A stretch of 64,000 bases of DNA from an uncultured Rhodospirillaceae bacterium (GTDB lineage Bacteria > Pseudomonadota > Alphaproteobacteria > UBA9219): the NCBI GenBank assembly GCA_964390005.1, contig CAYMGM010000003.1:81758-145757 (forward strand). Reading direction: 5' to 3'. Within the stretch, counting starts at the first letter, position 1; each line of letters starts with the position of its first letter. The notes beneath the pieces were generated by a model, which saw only the letters and a list, made by a program, of their open reading frames with translations, did not search any database and was not told the origin of the DNA. Made by a program: the position numbers and the translations under genes. Shown in pieces: positions 8,373-58,607 of this stretch.

Positions 8373-8399
8373 AGTTTGGACCTCTTGAACGGGGTTTTC

Positions 8400-10508
8400 A
8401 TGGTCTTTCCTATTTTTGCCGATGTGAAGCGGCCCTCTTTTCGTCCTGAAGCCGGGCGAAAGTTTAAGCTTGTCTCGCCTTTTGCGCCTGCAGGCGATCA
8501 ACCGGCGGCGATTGAAGCTTTATGCGCCGGGTTCGGCGCGGGCGAAAAAGACCAAGTTTTGTTGGGGGTAACGGGGTCCGGCAAGACCTTTACGATGGCC
8601 GAGACTATCGCGCGCTTGCAGCGCCCGGCGCTTGTTTTAGCGCCCAACAAAACGCTGGCCGCGCAGCTTTATGGCGAGATGAAAAGCTTTTTCCCGGACA
8701 ATGCCGTGGAATATTTTGTCAGCTATTACGACTATTACCAGCCCGAAGCCTATATTCCTAAAACCGATACGTTTATCGAAAAAGACGCCATGATCAACGA
8801 AGCGATCGACCGCATGCGCCATGGCGCGACGCGATCGCTTTTGGAACGTGATGACGTGATTTTAGTGGCGTCGGTTTCTTGTATCTATGGCATTGGCTCG
8901 GTCGAAACCTATCAGGAAATGGTGCTGACGGTCCGCAAGGGCGAGACGCTTGAGCGGTCCACGCTTCTTGGCGCGTTGGTCGAGCTGCAATATAAACGCA
9001 ACGACATCGGTTTTGGGCGCGGCGATTTTCGCGTGCGCGGCGACGTTATCGAAGTTTTTCCGGCGCACTTGGAAGACAAAGCGTGGCGTATTTCGCTGTT
9101 TGGCGACGAGGTCGAAGAGATTGTCGAAGTTGATCCCTTGACCGGCGAGAAAGGCGCGAAGCTAGAGGCCGCCAAGATTTACGCGAACAGCCACTATGTG
9201 ACGCCAAAGCCGACGCTGACGCAAGCGGTCGAAGCGATCAAGATTGAGCTGAAAGCGCGCTGCGAAGATCTTTTGGCGCAGAATAAGCTGATTGAAGAGC
9301 AGCGCCTGCGCGAGCGCGTGACCTTCGATATCGAGATGATCATGGCCACAGGGGCCTGTTCGGGGATTGAAAATTATTCGCGCTATTTGACGGGCCGCGC
9401 GCCCGGCGAGCCGCCGCCGACGCTTTTTGAATATTTGCCTGAAAACGCGATCTTGTTTGTGGACGAAAGCCACGTGATGGTGCCGCAGTTAAACGCTATG
9501 TATCGCGGCGATTATCAGCGTAAATCGACTTTGGCGACGTATGGGTTTCGTTTGCCTTCCTGTATCGACAACCGCCCGCTGAAGTTTGAGGAATGGGACA
9601 AGATGCGTCCGCAAACGGTCTTTATTTCGGCGACGCCGGGCCCGTGGGAGCTTGAGCAAACAAGCGGCGTTTTTGTCGAACAAGTTGTGCGGCCTACCGG
9701 TCTGACAGACCCCCCTGTGATCATTCGCCCCACCGAAAAACAGGTGGACGATCTGCTGGCCGAAGTGCGCCAAGTGACAGCCAAAGGACTTCGCACGTTG
9801 GTGACGACCCTGACCAAGAAAATGGCCGAAGCCTTGACCGATTACATGACCGAGGCGGGGATCAAGGTCCGCTATATCCATTCGGATGTCGATACGCTGG
9901 AGCGAATCGAGATTATCCGCGATTTGCGGCTGGGCACCTATGACGTTTTGGTCGGCATCAACCTGCTGCGCGAAGGGCTGGATATTCCCGAATGCGGGCT
10001 GGTTGCCATTTTGGATGCGGACAAAGAAGGGTATTTGCGTTCGCGTACCTCGCTGATCCAAACGATAGGCCGCGCGGCGCGCAATGTAGATGGTAAAGCG
10101 ATTTTATATGCCGACCGTATCACGGGCAGCATGCAGGCGGCGCTTGAGGAAACAAGCCGCCGCCGTGCCAAGCAAGAAGCCTATAATCTAGAGCATGGCA
10201 TTACGCCCGAAAGCGTGCGCAAACAGATTGGCGATGTTTTGTCGTCGGTTTATGATCGCGCCGACCATGTGACGGTCGATCTCAGTGATGCGCCTCATTT
10301 GGTTGGTAAAAATCTGCAAAATCACTTACGCGATCTCGAAAAACGGATGAAGGAAGCCGCCGCGGATCTGGATTTCGAAGAAGCCGCGCGCTTGCGCGAT
10401 GAGATCCGGCGACTTGAACGGGATGAATTGGAAATTACAAATAATTCAGATAGTTACGGAAAACCCTCCTCAGGGCGACGCCCGAAAACAAAGCGGCGGT
10501 CCAAATAA
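8400..10508 (+). CDS. uvrB: Excinuclease ABC subunit B
   Basis: [30 protein letters not shown] (Walker A), helicase motifs and a C-terminal UVR domain ([10 protein letters not shown]). ATG 8400 chosen; the TTG at 8376 is also possible. Confidence 0.95.
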
Positions 10509-38990: not shown

Positions 38991-39066
38991 GTCCCCTTCG
39001 TCTAGAGGCCTAGGACACCACCCTTTCACGGTGAAAACACGGGTTCGAATCCCGTAGGGGACGCCA
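38991..39066 (+). tRNA. tRNA-Glu (anticodon UUC), CCA encoded
   Basis: GTCCCCTTCGTCTAGAGGCCTAGGACACCACCCTTTCACGGTGAAAACACGGGTTCGAATCCCGTAGGGGACGCCA. It folds as a cloverleaf (acceptor GTCCCCT/AGGGGAC, T-arm ACGGG-TTCGAAT-CCCGT, anticodon loop CTTTCAC) and is near-identical in layout to E. coli tRNA-Glu. Confidence 0.95.
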
Positions 39067-39098: not shown

Positions 39099-39342
39099 TT
39101 GGCGTTTTCTTCCGTAGAAAGAACCCGTAGGGCCGGCGGGCCGCCGGGGGCCTTTGTTATTCTTTCCGCGTCATCTCAATGTTTGATGGCTGAAACGCCT
39201 GTGAAGCGGTGGGAGAACTTAACGGTATTGATTTAAGACTATTTTAAGCTTGCCTTGCTAGCGATAGTATTCACACTCGTCGTGAGAGGTGGGATTCGCG
39301 CCTCTGCACGTTTCTTTCTGCCTATCCACTTGGGTGATTTCC

Positions 39343-42300
39343 ATGTCCTCTTTCCCGCTCAGAACATTCCTTGCCGCGTTGCTGGCTTCAAGCTGCTTTG
39401 TGCCTGTGGCGCAGGCGGCGACGATCACATGGGACGGCGGGGCGGGAACATCAAGCTGGTTTGATGCTAACAATTGGAGTGGAAATGCCGTTCCGACGAG
39501 TAGTGATGAAGTGCGGTTGGATGCAATAGGCGTTGACGTTAACGGACTTGTGGAAAGCACTGCGACGCTAAGCGTTGGGCATACAGGAACTGCTTCTTTG
39601 GCAATTGAGAATGGCGGCGCTGTTACGTCGTCTTCAGGTAATCATATTTTTGTTGGAAATGCCTCTGGCAGCAATGGAACGATTACAGTTAATGGAACGA
39701 ACTCGACGTTAGAAAGCGGAAACCAGCTTATTGTCGGATATCATGGCACGGGACGTTTAACCATTTCAGATGGTGGAAATGCAACAGCAGATTCAAGTAT
39801 TTATGCTGGTTACCTAACGGATGGTGTCGGCACGATTGTCGTTACAGGCTCTGATTCGATGTTGGAGAGTGGAAAACATTTTTTCGTTGGCTATTCCGGT
39901 AGCGGCAGCCTAACGGTTTCTGATGGTGGTACCGTCAGCTCTGCATCAGGGTATAATATTTATGCAGGTACCTATACTGGAAGCACAGGAACAATCACAG
40001 TAACAGACATTGGATCGACGTTGGAGAGTGGAAATGCCGTCGTTATCGGCAATTATGGCACTGGCACGCTGACAATATCTGGCGGAGGCTATGTCGGCTC
40101 TACGGATGACAGCATTTATGTAGGTTACAACGCTGGTAGCACAGGAACAATCACAGTAACAGGTTCTGGATCAACGTTGGCGAGTGGCAGAAATGTTTAC
40201 ATAGGCCAATCAGGCACAGGTACGCTGGTCATCTCGGATGGTGGTATTGTGAGTGATGCCTATGGAGAAATAGGAACCGTAGCTAACTCTATCGGCACAG
40301 TAACTGTAGTCGGTACAGGATCAAGGTGGACAAACTCTGATATTCTGTATGTTGGGCGTTCCGGTTCCGGAACGATGTTGGTTTCTTCTGGAGGCACTGT
40401 TAGTAGTGGCACCTCTTATATCGGGGCATGGAGCAACTCCACGGGCGACGTCACAGTAACCGGCTTGGGATCAACGCTGGAAAGCGGGCAGAATATTTCC
40501 GTCGGAAATGCGGGTGACGGCACACTCACGGTATCAGACTCTGGCACCGTTTCCACGTCTGGCGTCCTCACCATCGCGGCGGACACCGTCTCCACCGGTA
40601 CGCTGAACATCGGTGCGGCGTCGGGCTCTTCTGCCGTGGCTCCCGGCACGGTTACAGCCTCGCGCGGCATCGTCTTCGGCGGCGGCACCGGTACGATCGT
40701 CTTCAACCATACATCGACCAACTATACCTTCGCGTCGTCGATCTCCGGCGTGGGCACTATCGAGAGCGTCACGGGTACGACCTATCTCACTGGCGATCTT
40801 TCCGGCTTTTCCGGCACGTTCGATCTCGAGGGCGGGACGTTGAGCGTCGTGACCTCCGGCGTGCAGACCCTTTCAAACAGCCTCTCGGGCTCGGGCACCA
40901 TGGCCTTCGCCTCCGGCACCACCTACCTGACTGGCGACAGCTCGTCTTTCACCGGCACGGCAGCCGTGTCCGGTTCGGGGATCCTGTCCGTGAACGGAAC
41001 ACTCGGGGGTACGGTGGACGTAGCTGACGGCGGCACCTTGAAGGGCTCGGGCACCGTCGGTGGGATTGATGCGGCTTCGGGCGGCACAGTCGCCCCTGGC
41101 AACTCCATCGGAACCCTTTCTGTCTCTGGCAATGTGAGCTTTGCTAGTGGTTCGACCTATGACGTTGAGGCCAATCTTACCAGCTCGGACAAAATCGTAG
41201 CCACAGGCGCGGCCACAATCACGGGCGGAGACGTATCGCTGATCGCCTATCAAGGGGCGCTGCTTCGCGCCGGGACCACCTACACCATCTTGACCGCCGA
41301 TGGCGGCGTCTCAGGCACGTTTGACAGCATTTCTTTTGCCGATCCTCTTCTCTTTTTGACCGCGACGCTGTCCTATGATGCGACGGATGTTTACGCCTCA
41401 GTGATCCGCAATGGGGTTAGCTTGGCCAGCGTGGCCGGATCGGGCAATCAGGCGAACGCCGCCGCCGCAATCGAAAGCCTTGGCGCCGGGAATGCCGTTT
41501 ACGATGCCGTGGCCATGCAAAGCGATGTCGGCACGACACGCCAAGCCTATCAGGCTCTGTCAGGCGAGATTCACGCGAACGTGAAGGCCACGCTTCTTGA
41601 AGATCAAGCCGCCTTCGGGCGCGTCTTGGCCGGACGTTTGGCGCAGGCCGAAGACAATCAAACAGGGTTTGCCGCGCCGGTGACGGCTCCGGCCCCTGTG
41701 GTCGCTTCTGCGCGCGGGCGGATCCTTTATGGCGACAAGATCGCGAATGATGCTGCTGTTGCAAATGCCAAGATTGCGCCGACCGTTTGGGCGCAGGGCT
41801 TTGGCGGCTGGGGCAGCCGCGACGGCGACGCGAACGCCAGAGATTTTAAGCATCAAGACAAAGGTCTGATGCTGGGCGTGGACGGGATGATGGGGGATAA
41901 CTGGCGTCTTGGCCTCGCCTTTGGCTATGACCATGCGGATTATAATCAAGAGGACGAGACAGGCGACAAGGGCACGTCAGAGCGTTACAGCGTCTCGGCC
42001 TATGGCGGGCGGAGCTGGGGCAAGCTGAGCCTGCGAACTGGCCTTACCTATGCCTATAGCGACATCGACACCAAGCGGGGCGTGAGCTTTCCTTATTACA
42101 GCGATTATCTGAAAGGCTCCTATAACGCCCACAGCGTGAGCGGCTTTGCAGAAACGGCCTATGGCTTTGGCGACAAGGAAAGCAAGATCGAGCCCTTCGC
42201 CAATCTGGCTTGGGGTTATGTGAATGTGCCCGGCTTTACCGAAAAAGGCGGCGCGGCGGCGCTGACCGCCGAAGACAGCGACGGAACGCTGGGCAGCACA

Positions 42301-42609
42301 ACGCTGGGCGCGCGGGTGCGGCAAGTCTTGCCCTTCCTGACATCGGCCAACAATCGGGCGGCGTTCCAAGCCTCGGCGGGGTGGATGCACGCGATTGGCG
42401 ACGCGAACCCCGAGACCAGCTTGCGCTTTGCGGGCTCTCGCGCCTTTGAAACCCAAGCGGCCCCGCTGGCCCGCGATGCCGCTGTTCTTGGCGCTGGCGT
42501 TGATTATCTGATCGGCCAGCAAACCACGCTTGGCCTTGCGTACACCGGCCAGATCGGCGCGCACGCCGACACCCAAGCCCTTCGCGGGAATCTGAGCTAT
42601 CGGTTCTAA
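39343..42609 (+). CDS. Classical (type Va) autotransporter with a repeat-rich passenger
   Basis: Signal peptide MSSFPLRTFLAALLASSCFVPVAQA. ITWDGGAGTSSWFDANNWSG opening. Seven roughly 58-aa tandem repeats (G(S/T)xGT(I/V)TVTG..STLESG...(L/V)T(I/V)SDGG), then PATR-like beta-strand repeats. C-terminal beta-barrel ending LRGNLSYRF. Confidence 0.9.
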   Translation: MSSFPLRTFLAALLASSCFVPVAQAATITWDGGAGTSSWFDANNWSGNAVPTSSDEVRLDAIGVDVNGLVESTATLSVGHTGTASLAIENGGAVTSSSGNHIFVGNASGSNGTITVNGTNSTLESGNQLIVGYHGTGRLTISDGGNATADSSIYAGYLTDGVGTIVVTGSDSMLESGKHFFVGYSGSGSLTVSDGGTVSSASGYNIYAGTYTGSTGTITVTDIGSTLESGNAVVIGNYGTGTLTISGGGYVGSTDDSIYVGYNAGSTGTITVTGSGSTLASGRNVYIGQSGTGTLVISDGGIVSDAYGEIGTVANSIGTVTVVGTGSRWTNSDILYVGRSGSGTMLVSSGGTVSSGTSYIGAWSNSTGDVTVTGLGSTLESGQNISVGNAGDGTLTVSDSGTVSTSGVLTIAADTVSTGTLNIGAASGSSAVAPGTVTASRGIVFGGGTGTIVFNHTSTNYTFASSISGVGTIESVTGTTYLTGDLSGFSGTFDLEGGTLSVVTSGVQTLSNSLSGSGTMAFASGTTYLTGDSSSFTGTAAVSGSGILSVNGTLGGTVDVADGGTLKGSGTVGGIDAASGGTVAPGNSIGTLSVSGNVSFASGSTYDVEANLTSSDKIVATGAATITGGDVSLIAYQGALLRAGTTYTILTADGGVSGTFDSISFADPLLFLTATLSYDATDVYASVIRNGVSLASVAGSGNQANAAAAIESLGAGNAVYDAVAMQSDVGTTRQAYQALSGEIHANVKATLLEDQAAFGRVLAGRLAQAEDNQTGFAAPVTAPAPVVASARGRILYGDKIANDAAVANAKIAPTVWAQGFGGWGSRDGDANARDFKHQDKGLMLGVDGMMGDNWRLGLAFGYDHADYNQEDETGDKGTSERYSVSAYGGRSWGKLSLRTGLTYAYSDIDTKRGVSFPYYSDYLKGSYNAHSVSGFAETAYGFGDKESKIEPFANLAWGYVNVPGFTEKGGAAALTAEDSDGTLGSTTLGARVRQVLPFLTSANNRAAFQASAGWMHAIGDANPETSLRFAGSRAFETQAAPLARDAAVLGAGVDYLIGQQTTLGLAYTGQIGAHADTQALRGNLSYRF

Positions 42610-42679: not shown

Positions 42680-42948
42680 GCAACAATTAGACTATTCATA
42701 CTTGATCTTTCCCACTCTAAAACCCGCGCAGATTAGTCCGCGAGAAGCATGACGAAGTCTGAAGGGCTTGATGGGGCACCGTGCTGCCCCCGGCCCAGTA
42801 CCGTGAAAAAAGCGTCATGGCTTGCCTCTTTGGGGACTGATCCTGCCTATAATGGGTACTTTAACCTTTCAGTGACTTTGATTCCATTCAAGAAAGCATT
42901 TTCTGTTTGGTAAAATGACTTTGTATTTATTTGATATTGGGGATGTTT

Positions 42949-43494
42949 ATGGAACAGGATGCCGAAATGCTGGGCCAAGGTGATACCGACGTTTCTCAAA
43001 ATCCGTATCAAGACCTGACCGAAGCGGCGTTAGCCGATTACATAGCCCGCCATAAAAGGGAACTTGCGTCCCTTGAAAACGATGCTTTTAAAAAAGCGGC
43101 CCAGCAGATTACGACTCGTGACGACGCATTTCTCAGAAGCGCCTGTGACGTTCGTAATGGCCTCTTCACGATTCAACGCAGAATTGGGCAAATATCCGAA
43201 GTCCTGCAAGACCGCCTTGACGCTGCAGGGGAGACAAAAAACAATCTGGTCAACGAATGGAAACAGATGCGTGTAACATGCTCCCGGATTAGCAAAAAGT
43301 CTGTTTGTCCACTTGGGCAGATTTCTCACACAATTGATGATTATCGCCATGCCTTTCCCAACGAGAAATCGACATTCCTAAAAAAGCTGGGACAAGTCAG
43401 CGTTGTTGCATCGATTGTTGCCGTCATTTCCGGCTATTTCTTCGGAGACAGCCTTAAGGCAAAGGCTCTAGTACGGGTGGTGGCCTCGTTATAG
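42949..43494 (+). CDS. Hypothetical protein with a C-terminal hydrophobic segment
   Basis: ORF in an AT-rich stretch with no recognisable motif. C-terminal VSVVASIVAVISGYFF. Start uncertain (42931, 42943 or 42949). Confidence 0.4.
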   Translation: MEQDAEMLGQGDTDVSQNPYQDLTEAALADYIARHKRELASLENDAFKKAAQQITTRDDAFLRSACDVRNGLFTIQRRIGQISEVLQDRLDAAGETKNNLVNEWKQMRVTCSRISKKSVCPLGQISHTIDDYRHAFPNEKSTFLKKLGQVSVVASIVAVISGYFFGDSLKAKALVRVVASL

Positions 43495-43596
43495 GGACTG
43501 TAATAGCGAACATGGGGCAAGTAAAAACGAAAACCGTGCCTAAAAGGCCCCTTGAAGCGGCAGAAATTCGGCAAGTGTACGCTTACCTCTCTTAGC

Positions 43597-43860
43597 TTAA
43601 GGGCCAGAGGGGGCTCCTACAGAGCTATCCGAAACTTGTGGCTGTGAGACGGGACTGTGGTTTTTCTTGGGGGGTAAAAGGACACGATCAAGGCGATTTG
43701 CCCAATAATTCGACTGGGCTGTCTTATCATTCTTGCCAAGCGTTTGCATCTCTTCGGCAGCGCTTTTGAAGCTAGCTCGAATCTTTTTAATCCCTCGCCA
43801 AAGCCCATAGCTAAAAGCTATTGAGCCAAGACTGATAAAAAATAGATCGGAATAAGCCAT
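43597..43860 (-). CDS. Hypothetical small membrane protein
   Basis: 87-aa version starting MAYSDLFFISLGSIAFSYGLW (GGAG RBS). AT-rich context; weak call. Confidence 0.3.
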   Translation of the reverse strand: MAYSDLFFISLGSIAFSYGLWRGIKKIRASFKSAAEEMQTLGKNDKTAQSNYWANRLDRVLLPPKKNHSPVSQPQVSDSSVGAPSGP

Positions 43861-44303
43861 CCTACGTCTCCGATTGAAGCCTTGTGGCAGTTTCCCACTT
43901 CCTGCCCTTAGCAACAAGTTTTTAATGCGTTGTTAATGACTTCATTTCTCGTTAACTTATGAACCAAAGGAAAAAAGATAGCATTGAAAAATAACGCGTA
44001 GTTCTTTTTATTTAAAAGAGGTCTTTTGGTTCTTCCCGATTTTTCTTATCATTACATTTGGGGCATTTAATCGATAGTGCCGCCGAAAGAGTATCTCCAT
44101 CGTTTTGTTTTACAAACAGAACGAACTATTCAATAGCGCCCGCATTTTAAGAAATATAACAACGAAGAAATATAAAGCATCTCCCCGTGTGTATTTCATT
44201 GTGACTTTAATTCTAGATTAATTCTTCTCCTGAAAAGTGGCAGGCAGCGAAGGGTGGGCCTTCTGTTTTTTGAAGTGTAGCTTAGCTATATAGGTGGGGA
44301 ATA

Positions 44304-46289
44304 ATGCGGTTTTTGCGTGTCGGCGGGCTTTGTGTGCGCGCTCCTATCCGGCGTCTTGGTCTTTGCTTGTTGGCTGGGGCGATGTGTTTTTCTGTGACGC
44401 CTGCTTTGGCGTTGGAAGAGATCAACACTTATATTTTACCCTCGACGCCGAATTTCAGGGATCTTGCGGGCATTTCAGCGAGTAATGGCGGCACGGGGTT
44501 TGTCAATCCCACCAGCAATGGCGGCGCGATGCGGACGGGCGTCATTTATCGCTCGGATTATTTGTCTTTAAGCAACGAAGATTGGCAAAAGATCTCGACC
44601 TTGAATATTGGCCGCGATATCGATTTGCGGACCGATTCAGAAATCGCGTCTAATCCCGATCTTGTCCCGGCGGGGGCTGTCCATACGCAAATCAATATTT
44701 ATGGCACACCTGCACCAACCCCCAGTCCGTTTTGGGGCACGCCCGCAGAAGCGGTTGCGTTTATGGAAAGCGGATACCGCGATTTCGTTCGAGACCCGCC
44801 CACGCAACGGGATGGGTTTTATAATGTTTTGATGACCATCGCGCATGACGACTTTCCCGTGTTGTATCATTGCTCGGGGGGCAAGGATCGCACGGGATGG
44901 ACATCGGTCCTTCTTCAAACCATCGCGGGCGTGTCGCAAGACACGATTATGCAAGATTATCTTGCGACGAACAGTTATACCGCCGCGTTGATGGCCAGCA
45001 CGAAAGCCAACCTTTTATTGACGTATCCAACATGGGATCCCGCGACCATTGACGCGCTTTTGGGGGTGCAAGCCAGCTATCTTCAAGCGGCCTTTGATCA
45101 GGTGGCGATTTCCTATGGATCTATGGATGCCTATTTGAAAGAGGGGCTTGGGCTGACGCAGGCCGATATCTATGTCTTGCGCGCCAAGATGGTCTACTAC
45201 GCCTCACTGCCCGGTCAAAGCGGGATGGTCGGCAACGCCGCCGCAGGCGCTTCTTTGTTGAACGCACTGCAAAACACGCCGCTATCGGGGCATTACACGG
45301 CCTATAACTATTACCTGCAGTCGGCGATCGAGGCGGGGACGCTTGGCGGGGTCGAAACGCAAGTCGGCGGGCAGGTTCATGCCGATGCGGCTTCGTTCCT
45401 TTTACGTCAGCCTCAATGGATCGAGACGACGTCTCAACCCTATACCGCGCCGGAAAAAAGCGAACGTCCTTATCTTTGGATGGTTGGCTTGGGCGGCCAT
45501 TTTGAATCGAACGGCGGCAGCGGCATCGAAAGCAGCCGCGAAAACAGTGGCGGCACGCTTATGGGGGCGACCTATCGCCTTGACGACCAGATCAGCGCGA
45601 CCTTTGGCTATGGCTATCAGTGGGGCTCGGTCGGGAGCGCTGGCGGCGATGCAACGCTGAATACCTATTTGGCGATGGCGAGCGGGCGCTATGCGTTTTC
45701 TTCGCTTGAGGCCGGGCCTTATGTAACCGCGCAAGCCCATGCGGGTTATGTGGACTATGAAAGCAAACGGCATCTTGGCGGCGGCTTAGGGGCGGCAAGT
45801 GGTGATAGCGATGGCGCTCTTGTCAGCAGCTTTGTTGGGATTGGCGACCGGATCCGCGTGCCGTCTTTGACGCTGACACCGCAAACGGGCGTGCGCGTTA
45901 CACATCTTTTCCTTGGCGGCTTTCAAGAAACCGGTAGCGATCTTGCCTTGAAGGTGAAGTCGATGAACCCGATGACATCAAGCGGCGCCGCGCGGTTCGA
46001 GGCGCGTATGGATCCTCAATCCGTTGGCGCGTGGACATTTGCGCCTGCTGTGGCGGTTGGTTATGAACGTGCGTTTAACGATCCGCAAAGCGAGACCACA
46101 GGATCGCTTTATAATTTGCAAGTCAGTCAAAAGTCGGCTTTTGACAGCCGAAATCTTGCCAATTTAGATTTGGATGTGACGGCGCGTTATGAATCGCTTG
46201 TTGTGAAGGCGGGGCTTTCCGGTCTGATTGGCGATGCTGCCAAAAGCAGCGGTGTCAATGGGCGCTTGTCGGTGAGTTACAATTTCTAG
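44304..46289 (+). CDS. Autotransporter with a protein-tyrosine/dual-specificity phosphatase-like (CX5R) passenger
   Basis: Signal peptide (...CLLAGAMCFSVTPALA). NFRDLAG and IYRSDYL, then the P-loop LYHCSGGKDRTGW (HCxxGxxR(S/T)) at about 44868..44897, typical of the Y_phosphatase3-type family. The C-terminal roughly 280 aa are beta-barrel-like, ending GRLSVSYNF. Confidence 0.8.
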   Translation: MRFLRVGGLCVRAPIRRLGLCLLAGAMCFSVTPALALEEINTYILPSTPNFRDLAGISASNGGTGFVNPTSNGGAMRTGVIYRSDYLSLSNEDWQKISTLNIGRDIDLRTDSEIASNPDLVPAGAVHTQINIYGTPAPTPSPFWGTPAEAVAFMESGYRDFVRDPPTQRDGFYNVLMTIAHDDFPVLYHCSGGKDRTGWTSVLLQTIAGVSQDTIMQDYLATNSYTAALMASTKANLLLTYPTWDPATIDALLGVQASYLQAAFDQVAISYGSMDAYLKEGLGLTQADIYVLRAKMVYYASLPGQSGMVGNAAAGASLLNALQNTPLSGHYTAYNYYLQSAIEAGTLGGVETQVGGQVHADAASFLLRQPQWIETTSQPYTAPEKSERPYLWMVGLGGHFESNGGSGIESSRENSGGTLMGATYRLDDQISATFGYGYQWGSVGSAGGDATLNTYLAMASGRYAFSSLEAGPYVTAQAHAGYVDYESKRHLGGGLGAASGDSDGALVSSFVGIGDRIRVPSLTLTPQTGVRVTHLFLGGFQETGSDLALKVKSMNPMTSSGAARFEARMDPQSVGAWTFAPAVAVGYERAFNDPQSETTGSLYNLQVSQKSAFDSRNLANLDLDVTARYESLVVKAGLSGLIGDAAKSSGVNGRLSVSYNF

Positions 46290-46455: not shown

Positions 46456-46971
46456 ATGATTGAGCGTAAAAACATCGTCACTTTTCTAGGAAATCCGCTG
46501 ACCCTGTTGGGTGAGGCCGTCTCTATTGGACAAAAGGCGCCGCCGTTTCAGGTTTTGGATAACGGGTTGCAGGAAAAAACAGGAGATGATTTTGCTGGCG
46601 ATGTTTGCATCGTCGCTGCTGTGCCGTCGCTTGATACGCCCGTGTGCGACACCGAAGCGCGCCGCTTTAATGCCGCGGCTGCGAAGCTGGGCGCAGGCGT
46701 GAAGGTTTTGACGATCAGCATGGATCTGCCCTTTGCGCAAAAGCGTTGGTGCGCGGGCGAAGGACTGGCCAATGTCATCACCCTGTCGGATCATCGTCTG
46801 GCCAGCTTTGGCGAAAACTGGGGCGTTTTGATCAAAGAGTTACGGCTTTTGGCGCGCGCTGTTTTTGTCGTCGATCGCGGTGGCTTTGTCCGGTATGTCG
46901 AAATCGTTCCCGAAGCCTCGCATGAGCCCAATTACGAAGCGGCGCTGGCGGCAGCATCGGCGTTGCTTTAG
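46456..46971 (+). CDS. tpx: Thiol peroxidase (atypical 2-Cys peroxiredoxin)
   Basis: VPSLDTPVCDTEARRFN (peroxidatic Cys) and FAQKRWCAGEG (resolving Cys). Confidence 0.92.
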   Translation: MIERKNIVTFLGNPLTLLGEAVSIGQKAPPFQVLDNGLQEKTGDDFAGDVCIVAAVPSLDTPVCDTEARRFNAAAAKLGAGVKVLTISMDLPFAQKRWCAGEGLANVITLSDHRLASFGENWGVLIKELRLLARAVFVVDRGGFVRYVEIVPEASHEPNYEAALAAASALL

Positions 46972-50881: not shown

Positions 50882-51146
50882 GTTCCGAAAGGAACGAAAT
50901 ATTAACAATTTGGGTGCAAATTTGAAGAGAGCTTGAGGCAGGTGCGTCTCAAGCAAGGTTTCGTGTGCGCCCTTTGATTTGAAACGATGTGTTGATCGGG
51001 CGCGCCTTCTTGAACAATTGAGCGTTGAGCATAGCGCGAGGATGTTTAATGGCGACAAGGAATACGATAAAAATCAGTCGATTTTTAAAGACGTTTCCAT
51101 GGCGCCAAACGTCTTGCAAAGGATCATTTTTATGTGGGGGCGTGTC

Positions 51147-54100
51147 ATGACACACAGCCGGATTTTTTGTGCATCCGAACGATCGGACTTGCCCTCTTCA
51201 AAACGACGCGGCTTTGCTATCGCACCAATCCTGTATTTGCTGATGATGATCGGCGTTGCCGCCGGTATGCTGTTCAGCAGCTTTAGTCAGGTTCTTCATA
51301 GCAACATCAATACAACAAATATGTTGACGGCGAAGAACGATATCAATGCCATCGCGACAGCTTTATCGGCGTCGAGCGGTGTCTCGGAAGGGTTGGTTTG
51401 TACGCCGCCGTCAAGTGCTGCGGCTGCCACGGGGGCATGCGCAACGGCGACAATCCGAAATCTTCTTGTTCCTCTGGCTTCTGCCGATGCGGCGCATCTA
51501 CCGAAAAATAAGGAAGCTCTTGCTGGATCGGGGGGGAATCCTCCGGCAGAATATGGCGTTCTTTCCGCCGATGCGGGGGTTAAACAACTCGACCCCTGGG
51601 GCCATTATTATATCTATTGTCGTTGGAACACCGCGGTTCTCAATGACATGAACAAGCAAGTCATCAAGATTATTACGGCGGGACCGTCTGGCACATTGCA
51701 ATCAACTTGCGATGATGGCGGCAACAACGCCAACGCCGTCGGAGACAACCAGGTCATTTCTTTGACCGGGAATATGATCAAACAACGTGCCTCGGTGTGG
51801 GTCAATCAGGGGCAAAATGCAACCTACGGCACGACAGACGCGCAGGTTCTTGTGACGGCGACCGGCGGTATGGAAGCCATAAAGGCAAGCGTCGCGGGCC
51901 TTGTCGCGCAGACGGCGACGATTGGTTCTTTTCATGGTCAAAATGGGCACTTTGACTCTTTGACCTTGGGCACGCCTTTGGATATCGCCTATGGCGGTAC
52001 AGGGGCTTCCGATTCGCTTCATGCACGCAATAACTTGGGGTCTGGGGCTATTGGCGACAGCCTTTTTGTTTCTACAACGGCGACAGACGCGCGCGCGACC
52101 TTAGAGGCGGGCGCGATCGGCGGGTCGTTGTTTGTGGCCGGAACGGCGACCGAAGCGCGGAGCGTTCTTGAAGCTGGCGCTGTTGGTGGGTCTGTTTTTG
52201 TCGCGGCAACGACAACAAGCGCGCGCGATGCTTTAGGGGCAGGCGCGATTGGTCATCAGCTTTTCACCTCAACAAGCCAGTCCGGTGCGCGAAGCGATCT
52301 TGGGGCTGGGACAACGGGCGATTCTTTGTTCCAAGCCTCGGATCCTCATGCGGGAAGATCCGTTCTCGGCGCTGGGACAGTTGGAGAAGGCGTTTTTCAA
52401 TCGATGACTTATGCTGCAGCGTGGGCCGCTTTGGGGCTGACGGGCGGGTCAGGAACGTTGCAAGTGAATGTGACAGGCCAAGCCGGGACCGTTCCCGCTA
52501 CGGGGATTGTCGGTATCGTTTCAATTTCGCAAGGCGGTACGGGGGCTTCAAGCGCGGCATCGGCGCGTACGAATCTGGGCGCAGATAACGCTAGTAATTT
52601 GACAACAGGGACGCTGTCTGTGTCGCGCCTTGCCGACAACTCGATTACCAGCGCAAAACTGACCACAACAGGCGTGACCGCGCAGACTTATAATTGGGGT
52701 ACAGTCGATGCGGCAGGTCGTGTGACAGAGGCAAACGACGTTGTTTTAGGAAATCTTACGGATGGAAGTGGCGACGGTATCGCTGCCTCGACTTCCGGTG
52801 GCGGTTCTTTGACGTTTATGACCGCCAGCACCGTTTGGATGACGTTAGACTCGAATGGGTATTTAGGGCTCAATGTCGCCAATCCGGGCGAACGTTTGCA
52901 TGTGAACGTTGGCAATATCCGCGTGTCGGGACCTGCCGCCACGGCGCGTGATTTGCAGTTTACGACAAGTACGTCTAGCTTGCGTTGGGTTTTGGGGACC
53001 GACAGCACGGCGGAAAGCGGTAGCAACGCGGGCTCGAACTTTTTCCTGAACCGTTATAGCGATGCGGGCGGTGCGCTTGGTACAGTGCTTGCGATTACGC
53101 GTTCGACAGGGGCCGCATCTTTTTCAGGCACCGTCGCTTCAACAGGCGGTTTCAATGGCAATTTGACAGGCAATGTGACGGGGCAAATCTCGCTTCCCGA
53201 TGGGACTGTCGGCGCGCCTTCGATGAACTTTCAGAACAATGCCAACATGGGGCTTTACCGTCCCGGCGCCAGCGCGATGGCGTTTGTGACTGGCGGGGCC
53301 GAGCGTTTGCGTTTGTCCGCGACCGCAGGGATCGGTATTGGGACGACCGCGCCGCGTGTGGCGTTGGATATCGGGTCTTTAACTGACGCGATGGTTCTTC
53401 CTGTCGGAACGACGGCACAGCGTCCGGGGTCAAACTTTGCTGGCGCGGTGCGCTATAACACGACGATCCCGTCGCTTGAAGTCAACAACGGGAGCGGGTG
53501 GAGTTCACTTATTACCAGCACATCGTCAATGTCGAGTGGCGTCATTTTAGGGGCCTCGGCGGCGGCGACAAACCCCCAGCGTTCGGGCGATGCGACGACG
53601 GGCCTGTTCAGCGCGGCGGCGGGGACGGTCAGCGTGGCGTCGTCGAGCGCGGAAGTTGCACGTTTCAGCGCGACAGGGCTTAATTTGCCAGGCTTGACGA
53701 CGGCCTATTCGATTGCGGGCAGCAAGGTCGCTGCGCTGCCGGGTAGCGATACGACCAGTCTGGCTTTGGGGCCGAATGCCTTGGCCGCGCAAAATACCAC
53801 AAGCTTGAACAACGTCGCGGTAGGCTCGCAGGCAGCGACAAGCCTGTTATCCGGTCATGAAAACGTCGCCGTGGGCGTTCAAGCCCTTTACACGACGACG
53901 ACCGGTTATCAGAACGTCGCGGTGGGTACGCATGCCCTTTATACCGATTCATCCGGCGCGCAAAACTTGGCGGCTGGCTATGAAGCCCTGTACAAAAACA
54001 CGACCGGGTCGGACAACGTCGCCAGTGGTGCGCGAGCTCTTTATAGCAACCAAGGCGGCAACAATAACGCGACGCTTGGCTATGAAGCGATGTACTATAA

Positions 54101-57100
54101 TTCATCGGGCAGTGAAAACACCGCGGCCGGTTTCATGGGGATGGCGTCGAATACGACCGGCAACAACAACACGGCGCTGGGTGCTTATGCGTTGTACAAT
54201 TCGGCGACGCGGACGACTGGGAATAACAACACGGCCATCGGATATCAGGTCGGCTCGAAAACGCTTGTTTCGGGGTCGGGTAATATCTTGATCGGCACGT
54301 CAAGCTTGACCGATGTGCCATCGGCGACCACCAACAATTGGATGAACATCGGCAACACGCTTTATGCCGATCTGTCGGCGGGCAATGTCGGCTTTGGCAA
54401 CGCTACGATCCATACGGGTGTGTCGGTCGATATGGGGTCGCGCGTGGATAGCTTGCTTTTGCCGACAGGTACGACGGGGCAACGTCCGGGCTCGGGCGTG
54501 CAGGGGATGATGCGCTATAACAGCTCGATCGGCCAGTTAGAGGCTTATACGGCGTCGGGTTGGGCGACAATTTTGTCGAACACATCAACGAGCACGGCGG
54601 ATGTCTTTTTAGGCAGTACGGCGGCTTTAACCAACCCGCATCGTAATGGCGATGCGACGACGGGTCTGTTCAGTCCTGTGGCGGGAACGGTGGCCATTTC
54701 AACCGCCGGTACGGAAGCGCTGCGCGTGAGCGCAACAGGATCCGTGGGGATTGGGACGACGGCGCCTAGCGCGTCGCTGGATGTCCGTGGTGGGGCGTTC
54801 ATTTCTTCTGCAAATGACGGTATCGTCAGAATAGGTTCGGATTCAAACGGTGAGATTGAGATTGGAAATATTGGGCGTTCAACGTCAGGACAGCCTTATA
54901 TCGATTTCCATAGCTCGGTGAACTCGCCGGATTATGACGTGCGTTTGCAGGCCTCGGGCGGGACAACAACCAGCGGGATGGCTGATTTTCTGATTTTGGC
55001 GCAGCGCGTCACGGTCGGGTCGGGAGCCCCTACCGCGGGTGCTGGCCTTGATCTTAGCAGCCGGACGGGGACGGCTTATAGCTCGATGATTGTGCCAAAA
55101 GACACGACGGCGAACCGGCCTTCAGCCGGTGTTGCAGGTATGCTGCGTTACAACACGACGCTTGGCATGTTCGAAGCCTATACGGCCTCGGGTTGGTCGA
55201 CCATCTTGGCGAACACGGCCACGAACTCGCCCGACATCTATTTGGGGCCGGGCGCGACGCAAACAAATCCGCATGTCAGCGGGGATATCACAACGGGTCT
55301 TTTCAGTGGCGCGGCCAGTACGGTTGGCATCGCAACCGCGGGCGTTGAGCGCTTGCGCGTGACCGCGACGGGAAGCGTCGGGATTGGGACGACGGCACCG
55401 TTAGAACGGCTTCATGTTGCATATGCTGGAAACACAACAGCTTTAATTGATTCAATGGCGACCTCTCGCATATCTCAAGTGGCCTTTATCCGCGGATCTG
55501 GTAATGCGACATATATTGGGCCTACAGCATCAAACACAATGGACTTCTGGTCTTATGAGACTATTCCATTCCGCTTTGCTATTAATAATGCTGAGGTCAT
55601 GCGTATTACCACGACGGGAAGCGTTGGGATTGGAACGACAACACCGGCCTATCCACTCGATGTAAATGGGTCGGCACGAGTTACCGGCAATATCTTTGGG
55701 ATCCAAAACGGATATGGGATTTATTCAGATACGGCTTATTCAACTGGGGCGGGGATTCAGGTTTTAGGAACAACAGCCTCAACCCCCAATACCTTGTCTT
55801 TTTGGACAGGAGCTGCCGCACTCGCGGAGCGTATGCGTATCACAGCGACCGGCAGTGTCGGTATCGGAACGGCGTCGCCGCTTTATATGCTGGATGTCGC
55901 GGGCGGTATCCGGTCAAGCGGCGAAATCATTTCCACGAGCGCCAATCAATTCCGCATGGTCTATGGAAGCTATGGTGCGTTTTGGCGCAATGATGGATCG
56001 AATACGTATCTGTTGTTGACGGCTTCAGGGGATCAATACGGGACTTGGAATACGTTGCGTCCGTTCCAAGTTAACAACGTGACGGGGAATGTGACCGTCG
56101 GAACGAACGCCTATTTTGGTTCTAATCTTGGGATCGGGACGGCGACGACGAGTGCAGGAGCCTCTTTGGATATGGGCTCTAAAACGGATAGCATCTTGAT
56201 GCCCAAAGGTACGACGGCTCAACGTCCGGCGACCGGGCTTGCGGGTATGGCACGTTACAACAGCTCAATCGGGCAGTTGGAGGCTTATACAGCGTCAGGG
56301 TGGGTCACGATTTTGGCGAATACGGCAACCAGCTCGCCGGATGTGTATTTGGGTAGCGCAACAAGCGCGACGAATCCGCATGTGAATGGCGACGTGACAA
56401 CAGGATTGTTTTCGCCTGCGGCAAGTAACGTCGCTATTGCAACGGCGGGGACAGAGCGGTTGCGTGTGACCGCGACGGGGAGCGTTGGGGTTGGAACGAC
56501 AGCCCCCGCCTATACTTTTGACGTTACAGGCCAAGGTCGGTTTTTATCTTCTGTTGGAGTCGGTGGTGCGCCGCTCGGCTATTCGGCATTTAGTGTCGCC
56601 GGCGAAAGTACAATGAACAGCCAGGATGGGAATGGTCTTTTCAACATTGTTGCTGGTGGGTATCAAGCCGTAGCGGGAAGCACATATGTTTATACCAATA
56701 CACGTGGCGCTTCGCGGTTGCTATTGGCTGATGCTAACATTGGTTTGTTCGCTGGTGGTGCAAACGGTACGGGGTCTGCAGGAACGACCATCTCATGGAC
56801 GCAGCTTGCTGATATGACCGGGTCTGATCATATTTGGTTAAGCCCGCGCGGGACCTCGACCGATTTCTATATGACCTCTACTGGGGGTATTGGTATTGGG
56901 ACGGCGACGCCACTTGCAACGTTGAATATTAAATCATCTTACAGCTGTTGCGGTGCGGCGGGAAGTTCGGGTACGTCGGCTCTTGCCATCGATGGAGCGG
57001 TCAATGACTTGGCTCTTCGGCTTTATAACTCAGCGACTGGTGGTCGTGATTGGCGTTTGCTGTCTTCAGGCGGTGGTACAGGCGTTGGGGTTGGTAACTT

Positions 57101-58607
57101 TAACATTTATGACGTTTCCGCAGGAGCGACGCGCTTGAGTATCTCAGCAACAGGATACGTGGGTATTGGAATGACGGCGCCGAAAGCCTATCTTGATATT
57201 GGTACATTGTATTCCTGTTGTGCGACGCAGACGCCGACGCTTGGGATTTCTGAGAACTCGACTTCAAATAGTCGAATGCCGTGGATCCAGTTCCATGCAG
57301 CGGGTAAAGCAGAGGCCTTCTTGCGATTGCAGACGGCGAATCGTACCCTTGAAATTGGTGATAACCAAGCAGTCGGTGCGGGGCTTGCAATTATGAAACC
57401 TGACTTGTCTGGACGAAATGTATACTTATCATCGGGTGACTCAAGTTACATCTTAGGAACATTAGGTGTTGGAACCTCGTCTCCAGGGGTTAACTTTGAT
57501 CTTCAATCAAATAATCCGTATACAGCCATGAGAATTGGCGCTGCATCGACACCAACGATTCAGTTCCTATCTTCTTGGGGCGGCACAGATGTTAAGTATT
57601 GGGATATGTATGCAAACTCGTTTAATTTTATATTCCGTGCTGTCAGTGATGATTTTATGAACAACACAACGTGGCTTCAAGTTAATCGAGGTGGAACGTA
57701 CGGGTATAGCGTTAGCTCGATTTCATTTCCAAGTGCAGCTCCCGTCGGTATTGGGACATCTAGCCCGACGCATAAGTTGCATGTTTATAACCCAGCGGGA
57801 GGCGCTCGGACGGGGTACCATCAAGGGATGGGTGGCGTTGGTGATGTTTATATCACCGACAACAACGCTATCCTTTCCTCAAACGTTTACTACAATGGGG
57901 CATGGTATAATACGGCGGCTGGAATGGGAACCATTATAGATTTCTCGAATGGTACCCTAAACATTCAAACGACAGCATCGGCAGCGGCTGGGGCAACCCC
58001 GACAACCACATCGCGACTCTATATGACCAATGCAGGGTTCTTGGGCCTTAATGCGGGCGTGCCAACCTATCCCGTCCAAGTCGGGACCACGACATCGAAC
58101 GGGAACGGCGCTTTCCTTGATCCTGCCGGTGTTTGGACCAACGCATCTGATGCGCGCAGCAAAGAGAACGTGCATGAAGTGCCCTATGGTCTTGAGACGC
58201 TGATGAAGTTGAAACCCGTTGCCTATGAAATGAAAGGCACGCATCAAAAGCAGATCGGCTTTATCGCGCAGGAAGTCGCCAAAGTGGTGCCAGAAGTCAC
58301 GTCGGTCAGCGATAAGGGCTGGTACGGGTTGAGTTACGGCAACATGACGGCGATTACCGTGAAGGCTATTCAGGAAATGAAGGTCGAAAACGACAGGCTG
58401 GCTGCCGAAGTCGCGCGGTTGAAAGACCAAGGTCAAGACGTGCGGGCAGGTCGCGATGGCGGACGGACCGATGCGTTGACCGCTGAAGTTGCCGAGCTGC
58501 ACCGGACCGTCACGCTGCTGATCTGGGGGCTTGGCGAGCTGGCCATTATCGCTTTGGGCGGCGTGGGCGCGGCGATCTTCTTTGCCGCGCGACGGCGAAG
58601 GCGGTAA
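51147..58607 (+). CDS. Giant (about 2,486 aa) fibre protein: prepilin/pseudopilin-like N-terminus, tail-fibre-type repeats, C-terminal S74 intramolecular-chaperone domain and TM anchor
   Basis: Single ORF; the track starts it at 50979, and I prefer ATG 51147 or 51132. N-terminus KRRG-FAIAPILYLLMMIGVAAGM, then LDPWGHYYIY...IITAGPSGT. YGGTGAS...ARNNLG plus six ARxxLGAGxxGxxLF repeats. N(T/V)AxGxxAL repeats. Four modules with GT(T)xQRP...G(M)xRYN....LEAYTASGW. C-terminus ASDARSKENV...IGFIAQEVAKVVPEV...AITVKAIQEM (Peptidase_S74-like). Final LLIWGLGELAIIALGGVGAAIFFAARRRRR. Confidence 0.85.
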   Translation: MTHSRIFCASERSDLPSSKRRGFAIAPILYLLMMIGVAAGMLFSSFSQVLHSNINTTNMLTAKNDINAIATALSASSGVSEGLVCTPPSSAAAATGACATATIRNLLVPLASADAAHLPKNKEALAGSGGNPPAEYGVLSADAGVKQLDPWGHYYIYCRWNTAVLNDMNKQVIKIITAGPSGTLQSTCDDGGNNANAVGDNQVISLTGNMIKQRASVWVNQGQNATYGTTDAQVLVTATGGMEAIKASVAGLVAQTATIGSFHGQNGHFDSLTLGTPLDIAYGGTGASDSLHARNNLGSGAIGDSLFVSTTATDARATLEAGAIGGSLFVAGTATEARSVLEAGAVGGSVFVAATTTSARDALGAGAIGHQLFTSTSQSGARSDLGAGTTGDSLFQASDPHAGRSVLGAGTVGEGVFQSMTYAAAWAALGLTGGSGTLQVNVTGQAGTVPATGIVGIVSISQGGTGASSAASARTNLGADNASNLTTGTLSVSRLADNSITSAKLTTTGVTAQTYNWGTVDAAGRVTEANDVVLGNLTDGSGDGIAASTSGGGSLTFMTASTVWMTLDSNGYLGLNVANPGERLHVNVGNIRVSGPAATARDLQFTTSTSSLRWVLGTDSTAESGSNAGSNFFLNRYSDAGGALGTVLAITRSTGAASFSGTVASTGGFNGNLTGNVTGQISLPDGTVGAPSMNFQNNANMGLYRPGASAMAFVTGGAERLRLSATAGIGIGTTAPRVALDIGSLTDAMVLPVGTTAQRPGSNFAGAVRYNTTIPSLEVNNGSGWSSLITSTSSMSSGVILGASAAATNPQRSGDATTGLFSAAAGTVSVASSSAEVARFSATGLNLPGLTTAYSIAGSKVAALPGSDTTSLALGPNALAAQNTTSLNNVAVGSQAATSLLSGHENVAVGVQALYTTTTGYQNVAVGTHALYTDSSGAQNLAAGYEALYKNTTGSDNVASGARALYSNQGGNNNATLGYEAMYYNSSGSENTAAGFMGMASNTTGNNNTALGAYALYNSATRTTGNNNTAIGYQVGSKTLVSGSGNILIGTSSLTDVPSATTNNWMNIGNTLYADLSAGNVGFGNATIHTGVSVDMGSRVDSLLLPTGTTGQRPGSGVQGMMRYNSSIGQLEAYTASGWATILSNTSTSTADVFLGSTAALTNPHRNGDATTGLFSPVAGTVAISTAGTEALRVSATGSVGIGTTAPSASLDVRGGAFISSANDGIVRIGSDSNGEIEIGNIGRSTSGQPYIDFHSSVNSPDYDVRLQASGGTTTSGMADFLILAQRVTVGSGAPTAGAGLDLSSRTGTAYSSMIVPKDTTANRPSAGVAGMLRYNTTLGMFEAYTASGWSTILANTATNSPDIYLGPGATQTNPHVSGDITTGLFSGAASTVGIATAGVERLRVTATGSVGIGTTAPLERLHVAYAGNTTALIDSMATSRISQVAFIRGSGNATYIGPTASNTMDFWSYETIPFRFAINNAEVMRITTTGSVGIGTTTPAYPLDVNGSARVTGNIFGIQNGYGIYSDTAYSTGAGIQVLGTTASTPNTLSFWTGAAALAERMRITATGSVGIGTASPLYMLDVAGGIRSSGEIISTSANQFRMVYGSYGAFWRNDGSNTYLLLTASGDQYGTWNTLRPFQVNNVTGNVTVGTNAYFGSNLGIGTATTSAGASLDMGSKTDSILMPKGTTAQRPATGLAGMARYNSSIGQLEAYTASGWVTILANTATSSPDVYLGSATSATNPHVNGDVTTGLFSPAASNVAIATAGTERLRVTATGSVGVGTTAPAYTFDVTGQGRFLSSVGVGGAPLGYSAFSVAGESTMNSQDGNGLFNIVAGGYQAVAGSTYVYTNTRGASRLLLADANIGLFAGGANGTGSAGTTISWTQLADMTGSDHIWLSPRGTSTDFYMTSTGGIGIGTATPLATLNIKSSYSCCGAAGSSGTSALAIDGAVNDLALRLYNSATGGRDWRLLSSGGGTGVGVGNFNIYDVSAGATRLSISATGYVGIGMTAPKAYLDIGTLYSCCATQTPTLGISENSTSNSRMPWIQFHAAGKAEAFLRLQTANRTLEIGDNQAVGAGLAIMKPDLSGRNVYLSSGDSSYILGTLGVGTSSPGVNFDLQSNNPYTAMRIGAASTPTIQFLSSWGGTDVKYWDMYANSFNFIFRAVSDDFMNNTTWLQVNRGGTYGYSVSSISFPSAAPVGIGTSSPTHKLHVYNPAGGARTGYHQGMGGVGDVYITDNNAILSSNVYYNGAWYNTAAGMGTIIDFSNGTLNIQTTASAAAGATPTTTSRLYMTNAGFLGLNAGVPTYPVQVGTTTSNGNGAFLDPAGVWTNASDARSKENVHEVPYGLETLMKLKPVAYEMKGTHQKQIGFIAQEVAKVVPEVTSVSDKGWYGLSYGNMTAITVKAIQEMKVENDRLAAEVARLKDQGQDVRAGRDGGRTDALTAEVAELHRTVTLLIWGLGELAIIALGGVGAAIFFAARRRRR

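Follow-up and report, generated by a model that had tools for sequence, protein, structure and literature searches.

The 64,000-nt stretch of DNA considered here, called the window below, belongs to an uncultured Rhodospirillaceae bacterium (contig CAYMGM010000003.1 of assembly GCA_964390005.1, positions 81,758 to 145,757 of the forward strand). At 44304..46289 (+; window coordinates here and throughout) it contains a complete gene whose 661-aa product joins a cysteine phosphatase, related to MptpB of Mycobacterium tuberculosis, to a C-terminal outer-membrane beta-barrel. By architecture, the protein is a classical type Va autotransporter. Its role is probably that of a surface ecto-phosphatase, with the MptpB-like passenger acting on environmental or cell-surface phosphoesters; the bare designation as a surface ecto-phosphatase is the most defensible one. 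Proteins of this kind have been catalogued, but literature searches turned up no experimental work on them. The window protein is a new, diverged member, no more than 63% identical to anything found in the databases searched.

Gene and domain organization

The reading frame runs from an ATG through a stop codon, with boundaries at exactly 44304 and 46289 (+) in a six-frame ORF list, and a Shine-Dalgarno-like purine-rich sequence, GGTGGGG, lies a few bases 5′ of the ATG. An identical gene has been called independently on two public metagenome contigs, both Pfam domains again being present. The initial annotation of this region had singled out four motifs, every one of which can be located in the translation: NFRDLAG (aa 50-56), IYRSDYL (aa 81-87), the P-loop region LYHCSGGKDRTGW (aa 187-199), and the terminal SYNF (aa 658-661). 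It had also proposed two domains, and a Pfam search recovers both, far beyond chance. Y_phosphatase3 (PF13350) aligns over profile positions 3-239 of 240 with aa 45-297 (E 7.2e-58; 196.8 bits, cutoff 22.2), and Autotransporter (PF03797) aligns with aa 391-629 (E 3.7e-32; 112.5 bits, cutoff 26). A scan of the 661-aa protein against NCBIfam matched no family.

Five parts can be distinguished, all on the + strand: a Sec-type signal peptide (aa 1-36, 44304..44411); the phosphatase passenger (aa 45-297, 44436..45194); a linker, highly conserved in the family but of low model confidence (aa 298-355, 45195..45368); a long predicted alpha-helix (aa 356-381, GGQVHADAASFLLRQ..., 45369..45446), taken to be a pore-traversing helix; and the beta-barrel translocator (aa 390-661, 45471..46286), which ends in YNF. 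The phosphatase domain is shorter than the approximately 330 aa at first assigned to it. The mature domain (aa 37-297) is about 255-260 aa long, and the larger figure is reached only when the conserved linker is added.

At the N-terminus, inspection shows a basic n-region, a hydrophobic core, and A-L-A preceding L37; in the family alignment, homologs have the same A-x-A pattern, followed by Q or E. Both bear out the Sec signal originally proposed. A lipoprotein N-terminus was also considered, and was rejected because inspection finds no lipobox before any of the three cysteines in this part of the protein (C10, C21, and C28). Once the signal peptide is removed, one cysteine is left, the nucleophile C190, and there is therefore no disulfide that could block its transit of the periplasm; most of the 26 family members checked have one to three mature cysteines. 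Autotransporter passengers tolerate periplasmic disulfides poorly, and a mature protein with one cysteine fits this intolerance.

At the other end, the terminal Y-N-F is an aromatic beta-signal of the type Va kind. Among 100 full-length family members, 98 end in Y-x-F, and F661 is invariant. The dipeptide NN, needed for a SPATE/EspP-type Asn-Asn cleavage site, is absent from the entire window protein and is found between aa 350 and 391 in one of the 100 members.

The phosphatase passenger

Beresford et al. (2010; PMC3091653) took HCXXGKDR[TA]G as the defining P-loop of the MptpB-like atypical lipid phosphatases (ALPs). These enzymes are without WPD and KNRY motifs, and mutagenesis has shown the importance of the P-loop Cys, Lys, Asp, and Arg in catalysis as well as in binding phosphoinositides (PMC3091653). 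In the window protein the P-loop (aa 189-198, 44868..44897, +) reads H189-C-S-G-G-K-D-R-T-G198, with C190 as nucleophile together with K194, D195, and R196, and neither a WPD nor a KNRY string is present, as expected for ALPs; by sequence, it thus has every feature by which ALPs are recognized. The four catalytic residues are unchanged in 100 of 100 family members. The histidine before the cysteine is replaced once, by Asn, in a metagenome-assembled genome (MAG) of Acidocella sp. whose P-loop region reads YNCSAGKDRTG, with Cys, Lys, Asp, and Arg kept.

Family membership is also evident from comparison with solved structures. The only sequence matches in the PDB are a Clostridioides difficile protein tyrosine phosphatase (8dhi, E 7e-17) and MptpB itself (1ywf, E 4e-15), and the same two are recovered by fold: in a Foldseek comparison of the predicted structure of the protein (see below), 8DHI matched with a TM-score of 0.77 and 1YWF with 0.76. 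The identification of the passenger as a CX5R phosphatase of the Y_phosphatase3/MptpB-like family is therefore upheld by Pfam, by sequence, and by fold, and the passenger carries the exact ALP signature that has been tied to phosphoinositide activity (PMC3091653). A Gly-rich insertion of about 12 residues following NFRDLAG (aa ~57-72) is conserved as well.

ALPs hydrolyse several classes of phosphoester, and those with two basic P-loop residues prefer mono-phosphorylated inositol lipids (PMC3091653). The window protein has two such residues and so falls in the latter group, which may be taken as a lead to its substrate. Phytate, which had also been suggested as a substrate, has fared less well: six Pfam families match the protein with E up to 1, and the PTP-like phytases are not one of them, so that the idea stands on analogy. 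PTP-SAK, Y_phosphatase2, and Tc-R-P do appear among the Pfam matches, but below threshold.

The translocator and the structural model

A structure was predicted with AlphaFold2 from a 26-sequence family alignment. The model consists of a mixed alpha/beta phosphatase fold (aa ~80-297), a low-confidence segment (aa 299-354), a helix of 26 residues that directly precedes the first strand (aa 356-381), and an all-beta region (aa 390-660). Compared over its full length with the PDB by Foldseek, it most resembles two autotransporters with enzymatic passengers, EstA (3KVN, E 1.4e-17) and AaaA (9OQA, E 1e-15); the barrel taken separately best matches the NalP translocator (1UYN, TM-score 0.87 on the target), with matches also to EspP, Hbp, BrkA, and AIDA-I. 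The C-terminal autotransporter barrel and the phosphatase fold of the passenger, both predicted at the outset, are thus borne out by Pfam, by the model, and by structural comparison. From the structural matches, the barrel would have 12 strands, as in NalP, and the 26-residue helix may lie inside its pore.

The window includes a second classical autotransporter, at 39289-42609 (+; 1106 aa; PF03797, E 3.5e-60), without a recognized passenger domain. The phosphatase autotransporter follows 1.7 kb downstream of it, and a tRNA-Glu gene (38991-39066) comes just before it. BLASTP detects no similarity between the two proteins. They resemble each other only weakly, and only near the motif at the junction helix (GGQVHA vs. 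SGEIHA), where GGQVHADAASFLLRQ aligns with SGEIHANVKATLLED of the neighbor; at E 4.5, this alignment is not significant alone.

A conserved linker

No other part of the family is as well conserved as the segment between passenger and helix (aa 298-355), and yet this segment has the lowest model confidence (pLDDT < 50). Its commonest residue at each position has a mean frequency of 0.80, and 26 of its 58 columns are at least 95% conserved; the corresponding values are 0.68 and 54 of 217 columns for the catalytic core (aa 81-297), and 0.62 and 41 of 272 columns for the barrel (aa 390-661). By sequence, the linker matches nothing in the PDB at E up to 10.

When aa 298-389 were run with HMMER over 1.84 billion representative proteins, only 41 clusters were found: the phosphatase family itself, fragments, and about six autotransporters with a Peptidase_S8 (subtilase) passenger. 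The last are 910-1020 aa long and carry the same segment, at 42-52% identity, immediately before the barrel. In the window protein the segment reads LPGQ...GNAAAGA..LNALQN.PL...Y..Y..LQSA...G.LGG...Q.GGQVHADA.S.LLRQP, and the form given for the S8 autotransporters is LPGQ...GGQVHADA..YLLQQP. One other protein (P0275), with eight stretches matching the linker, was dismissed as spurious: it is a low-complexity tandem-repeat protein.

That the linker is shared with a few subtilase autotransporters is consistent with the best barrel match being to NalP, which is itself a subtilase autotransporter. To judge from the sequences, the linker and barrel may constitute a translocation-unit subtype that has been recombined with different globular enzymes. 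It is a reasonable hypothesis that the linker helps to start the export of passengers lacking an autochaperone.

Distribution

A protein search returned 826 matches at E up to 1e-5. Among the matches listed, both Pfam domains are present in 120 of 120 clusters, at 51-63% identity and lengths of about 650-660 aa; the names given to these relatives in their sources are “tyrosine-protein phosphatase” and “autotransporter domain-containing protein.” When genomes were scanned, one for each species, at least 567 had a relative, and the best 80 of them were re-checked by BLASTP. Nearly all of these 80 loci cover both domains, with a few ORFs cut short. The keeping together of the two domains across the listed clusters and the inspected genomes indicates that the fusion is under selection.

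Carriers among the best 80 include many species of the Pseudomonas fluorescens group, Klebsiella, Rhodopseudomonas, Acidocella and other Acetobacteraceae, Desulfovibrionaceae (Solidesulfovibrio), Desulfobulbaceae, and Syntrophobacteraceae, as well as MAGs labeled Acidobacteriota and Thermoguttaceae. They are overwhelmingly free-living, from soil, peat, sediment, and rhizosphere taxa. One of the 80 is labeled Gordonia sp. IEGM753 (JBNQGB010000001.1): its 2.86-Mb contig has a phosphatase autotransporter of the Pseudomonas type, in a locus with a GC content of 0.594 that nests inside Pseudomonas in the tree, and the assembly is probably mislabeled or contaminated.

The initial annotation had presented a passenger of this type as out of the ordinary, but the architecture occurs in hundreds of species and has already been listed. 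In a classification of 1523 autotransporters, Rojas-Lopez et al. (2018; PMC5767081) recognized a group of “phosphatase/hydrolase autotransporters” (PHATs), with a tyrosine-phosphatase subgroup (IPR029021) having alpha-helical passengers and no autochaperone. The category is a purely bioinformatic one, based on InterPro IPR029021 (PMC5767081), and a 2024 rhizosphere preprint only cites it. The ALP study, for its part, treats ALPs as proteins consisting of a phosphatase domain only and does not mention autotransporters (PMC3091653).

Genomic context and ancestry

The remainder of the window is ordinary chromosome, with genes for UvrB, homoserine dehydrogenase, RecJ, PhaC, a histidine kinase, a sigma-54 activator, an Fe-ADH, an O-antigen-ligase-like protein, a thiol peroxidase, a PurN-like formyltransferase, an SDR, and a DUF2336 protein. 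The host is an uncultured, apparently free-living alphaproteobacterium: the best named relatives of its UvrB (8376-10508) are from MAGs labeled Alphaproteobacteria or Rhodospirillaceae, at 75-82% identity. Several MAGs labeled “Bdellovibrionales bacterium” stand among the Alphaproteobacteria-labeled ones at the same 78-80% identity; these labels are probably taxonomic errors in the public records.

The gene was at first described as lying at the end of an AT-rich, probably acquired stretch, a description that holds in part. It does adjoin such a stretch (~42750-44300), where GC content falls to its lowest in the window (0.433 over 1 kb, the window mean being 0.548). Within this stretch lie a 386-bp intergenic region (0.358 GC) and two ORFs, 42931-43494 (+) and 43597-43917 (-), that match nothing in Pfam. 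It may represent a small islet of acquired DNA, or no more than a regulatory region. The gene itself is of native composition, with a GC content of 0.554 (GC3 0.60) against 0.548 for the window, similar to its neighbors. There is some indication of foreign origin in its phylogeny: in an unbootstrapped neighbor-joining tree, the window protein is on a long branch with homologs from Desulfobulbales and others labeled “delta,” outside the alphaproteobacterial clades. This hints, weakly, at an old inter-phylum transfer.

The AT-rich intergenic region directly upstream (43918..44303, 35.8% GC) presumably bears the promoter. No good match to a sigma-70 promoter was found in it, and a scan for promoters and terminators gave results at chance level. 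Synteny around the homologs was found only within a genus, in Pseudomonas, where the neighbors are an alpha/beta hydrolase, TspO, MscS, an AraC regulator, and a GGDEF protein; these have no link to phosphate or virulence.

Downstream by 166 bp is a thiol peroxidase gene (Redoxin/AhpC-TSA; 46456-46971, +). A functional tie between this protein and a surface thiol enzyme was considered, and was rejected because the two genes are adjacent in none of the 80 related loci; the arrangement here is probably a coincidence. Farther downstream (50979-58607, +), beside the DUF2336 gene and in a chromosomal context, is a giant ORF of 2542 aa with domains of the phage tail-fiber type: Gp34_trimer (aa 1632-1697, E 2e-26) and a Peptidase_S74 intramolecular chaperone (aa 2390-2440, E 3e-12).

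Possible functions

If the protein works as its parts suggest, the precursor would be exported by Sec, with removal of the signal peptide after A36, and the unfolded chain would traverse the periplasm. BAM would insert the C-terminal barrel (aa ~390-661), the helix at aa 356-381 would occupy its pore, and the phosphatase of about 260 aa would be threaded through to the cell surface. There it would probably remain tethered, since there is no intrabarrel Asn-Asn cleavage motif; EstA, the closest full-length structural match, likewise stays tethered to the cell surface. C190, with K194, D195, and R196, would then hydrolyse phosphomonoesters at the surface, and the type of P-loop points to phosphotyrosine-type esters, mono- or bis-phosphorylated inositol lipids, or inositol head groups as the likelier substrates. 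In a free-living alphaproteobacterium, an ecto-phosphatase is the most likely role for such a protein, rather than that of a dedicated host effector.

Several points weigh against this account. The signal peptide was called by eye and from the family alignment; confidence in the structural model is moderate (mean pLDDT 74, pTM 0.52, with the linker below 50); and DSSP divides the barrel into about 13 strand segments, the figure of 12 strands having been deduced from the NalP match. A surface-exposed thiolate nucleophile would be prone to oxidation in oxic habitats. Literature searches found no experimental, biochemical, or localization study of any member of the family. When all ORFs of the 80 loci were clustered, no neighbor was conserved across taxa. 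A search for Pho boxes (CTGTCATNNNNCTGTCAT-like) found no site with up to three mismatches in 43918-44303, and such sites are upstream of the gene in three of 80 homolog loci against a background of 2.2%, which is no enrichment, with a consensus that is enterobacterial and pseudomonad and may not suit all of these taxa. With neither conserved neighbors nor a Pho box, the genomic context points to no particular substrate or regulon.

The last of these points bears most directly on an alternative in which the protein is a PhoB-regulated scavenging enzyme of phosphate starvation, liberating inorganic phosphate at the cell surface in a role like those of PhoA, PhoD, or PhoX. The predicted surface location and the soil and wetland hosts would suit it, as would the range of phosphoesters on which ALPs act (PMC3091653), and the taxonomic reach of the Pho-box consensus limits what the negative scan can say. 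However, besides the unenriched Pho boxes, genes of phosphate metabolism are not adjacent in the Pseudomonas or Solidesulfovibrio loci, and the main text of a study of the phosphate-depletion exoproteome of three Pseudomonas strains mentions neither a tyrosine phosphatase nor an autotransporter (PMC5082522). Regulated scavenging of this kind therefore seems unlikely. The initial annotation had favored a different role, that of an effector acting on a host or prey. In full, this would be a factor of virulence or predation, released or presented to a eukaryotic host, a grazer, or bacterial prey, whose phosphoproteins or phosphoinositides it would dephosphorylate; MptpB acts in this way in macrophages. 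Enzyme family and P-loop are indeed those of MptpB and of Listeria Lmo1800, both virulence-associated phosphoinositide/protein phosphatases; autotransporters are often virulence factors (PMC5767081); and some carriers, such as Pseudomonas and Klebsiella, interact with eukaryotes. Most, however, are free-living sulfate reducers, bog Acetobacteraceae, Rhodopseudomonas, or soil pseudomonads, and the host of the window protein is an uncultured alphaproteobacterium. No cleavage motif for release was found, and by its topology a tethered passenger would face away from, and could not reach, the phosphoinositides of the cytosolic leaflet that are the targets of MptpB. Nor are secretion, toxin, or immunity genes linked to the locus, which has no conserved neighbor of any kind. 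With mostly free-living carriers, a tethered passenger, and no release motif, the effector role has no positive support and is distinctly improbable.

The passenger could also be catalytically irrelevant, either a pseudo-enzyme serving in binding or adhesion or a decaying relic. Adhesins are frequent among autotransporter passengers, and the Acidocella protein described above has lost the His before its catalytic Cys; but the P-loop Cys, Lys, Asp, and Arg are present in all 100 members, from several phyla, 54 of the 217 columns of the passenger core are at least 95% conserved, and the window ORF is intact and of native codon composition, all of which makes this very hard to credit. A surface ecto-phosphatase thus remains the preferred reading. 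A bolder version of it can be put forward, though it is rather unlikely: these may be overlooked and widespread surface cysteine phosphatases of soil, peat, and sediment bacteria, with a translocation-unit subtype that only some subtilase autotransporters share. In that subtype the non-beta-helical linker would take the place of the autochaperone in starting or driving the export of a globular passenger, and the substrates could be inositol head groups. If so, and if inositol-lipid or inositol-phosphate head groups come from eukaryotic debris or grazers, the family would be a new player in the turnover of organic phosphorus or in resistance to grazing.

An enzyme of this family active at the cell surface would add a cysteine-based, MptpB-like member to the environmental extracellular phosphatases (PhoA, PhoD, PhoX, PafA, and others), and one without the signs of Pho regulation that most of those known display. 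Type V secretion would gain from it a natural and compact case in which a globular alpha/beta enzyme is exported with neither beta-helix nor autochaperone, of use for understanding type V secretion and for the engineering of surface display, and the conserved linker offers a concrete handle on how globular passengers leave the cell. None of this overturns current understanding, the architecture having already been catalogued.

Comparison with known systems

The nearest relatives by architecture are the tyrosine-phosphatase subgroup of the PHATs (PMC5767081), which have the same combination of a type Va translocator and a PTP-superfamily passenger whose globular fold is alpha-helical. EstA of Pseudomonas aeruginosa (3KVN) and AaaA (9OQA), the structures most similar over the full length, share a compact, non-beta-helical enzyme passenger with a helix leading into the barrel, but the enzymes they carry are, respectively, a GDSL esterase and an M28 aminopeptidase, and they are only 15-18% identical to the window protein in sequence. 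For the translocator, the closest parallel is with the subtilase (Peptidase_S8) autotransporters, about six clusters of which have the same linker before the barrel. NalP serves as the structural representative of this group and supplies the best barrel match. The passengers in the group are serine proteases, in most cases accompanied by PATR repeats.

For the passenger, the C. difficile protein tyrosine phosphatase (8DHI/8DHJ) is the closest solved homolog by both sequence and fold. It differs in being a stand-alone protein of 249 aa from a Gram-positive bacterium; a literature search found no paper describing 8DHI. PTP-like cysteine phytases, such as Selenomonas PhyA, use the same CX5R chemistry on inositol phosphates, and belong to a separate Pfam family. 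With MptpB (1YWF/2OZ5) and the other ALPs (Listeria Lmo1800 and Lmo1935, and Leishmania LM1), the window protein has in common the Y_phosphatase3 domain, the HCXXGKDR[TA]G P-loop with its conserved Lys and Asp, and the lack of WPD and KNRY motifs; MptpB shares its fold (TM-score 0.76) at about 25-27% identity, but leaves the cell by a secretion route of Gram-positive type and contains two mycobacterial insertions. What sets the window protein apart from the ALPs is its fusion to an outer-membrane translocator, together with the conserved Gly-rich insertion of about 12 residues.

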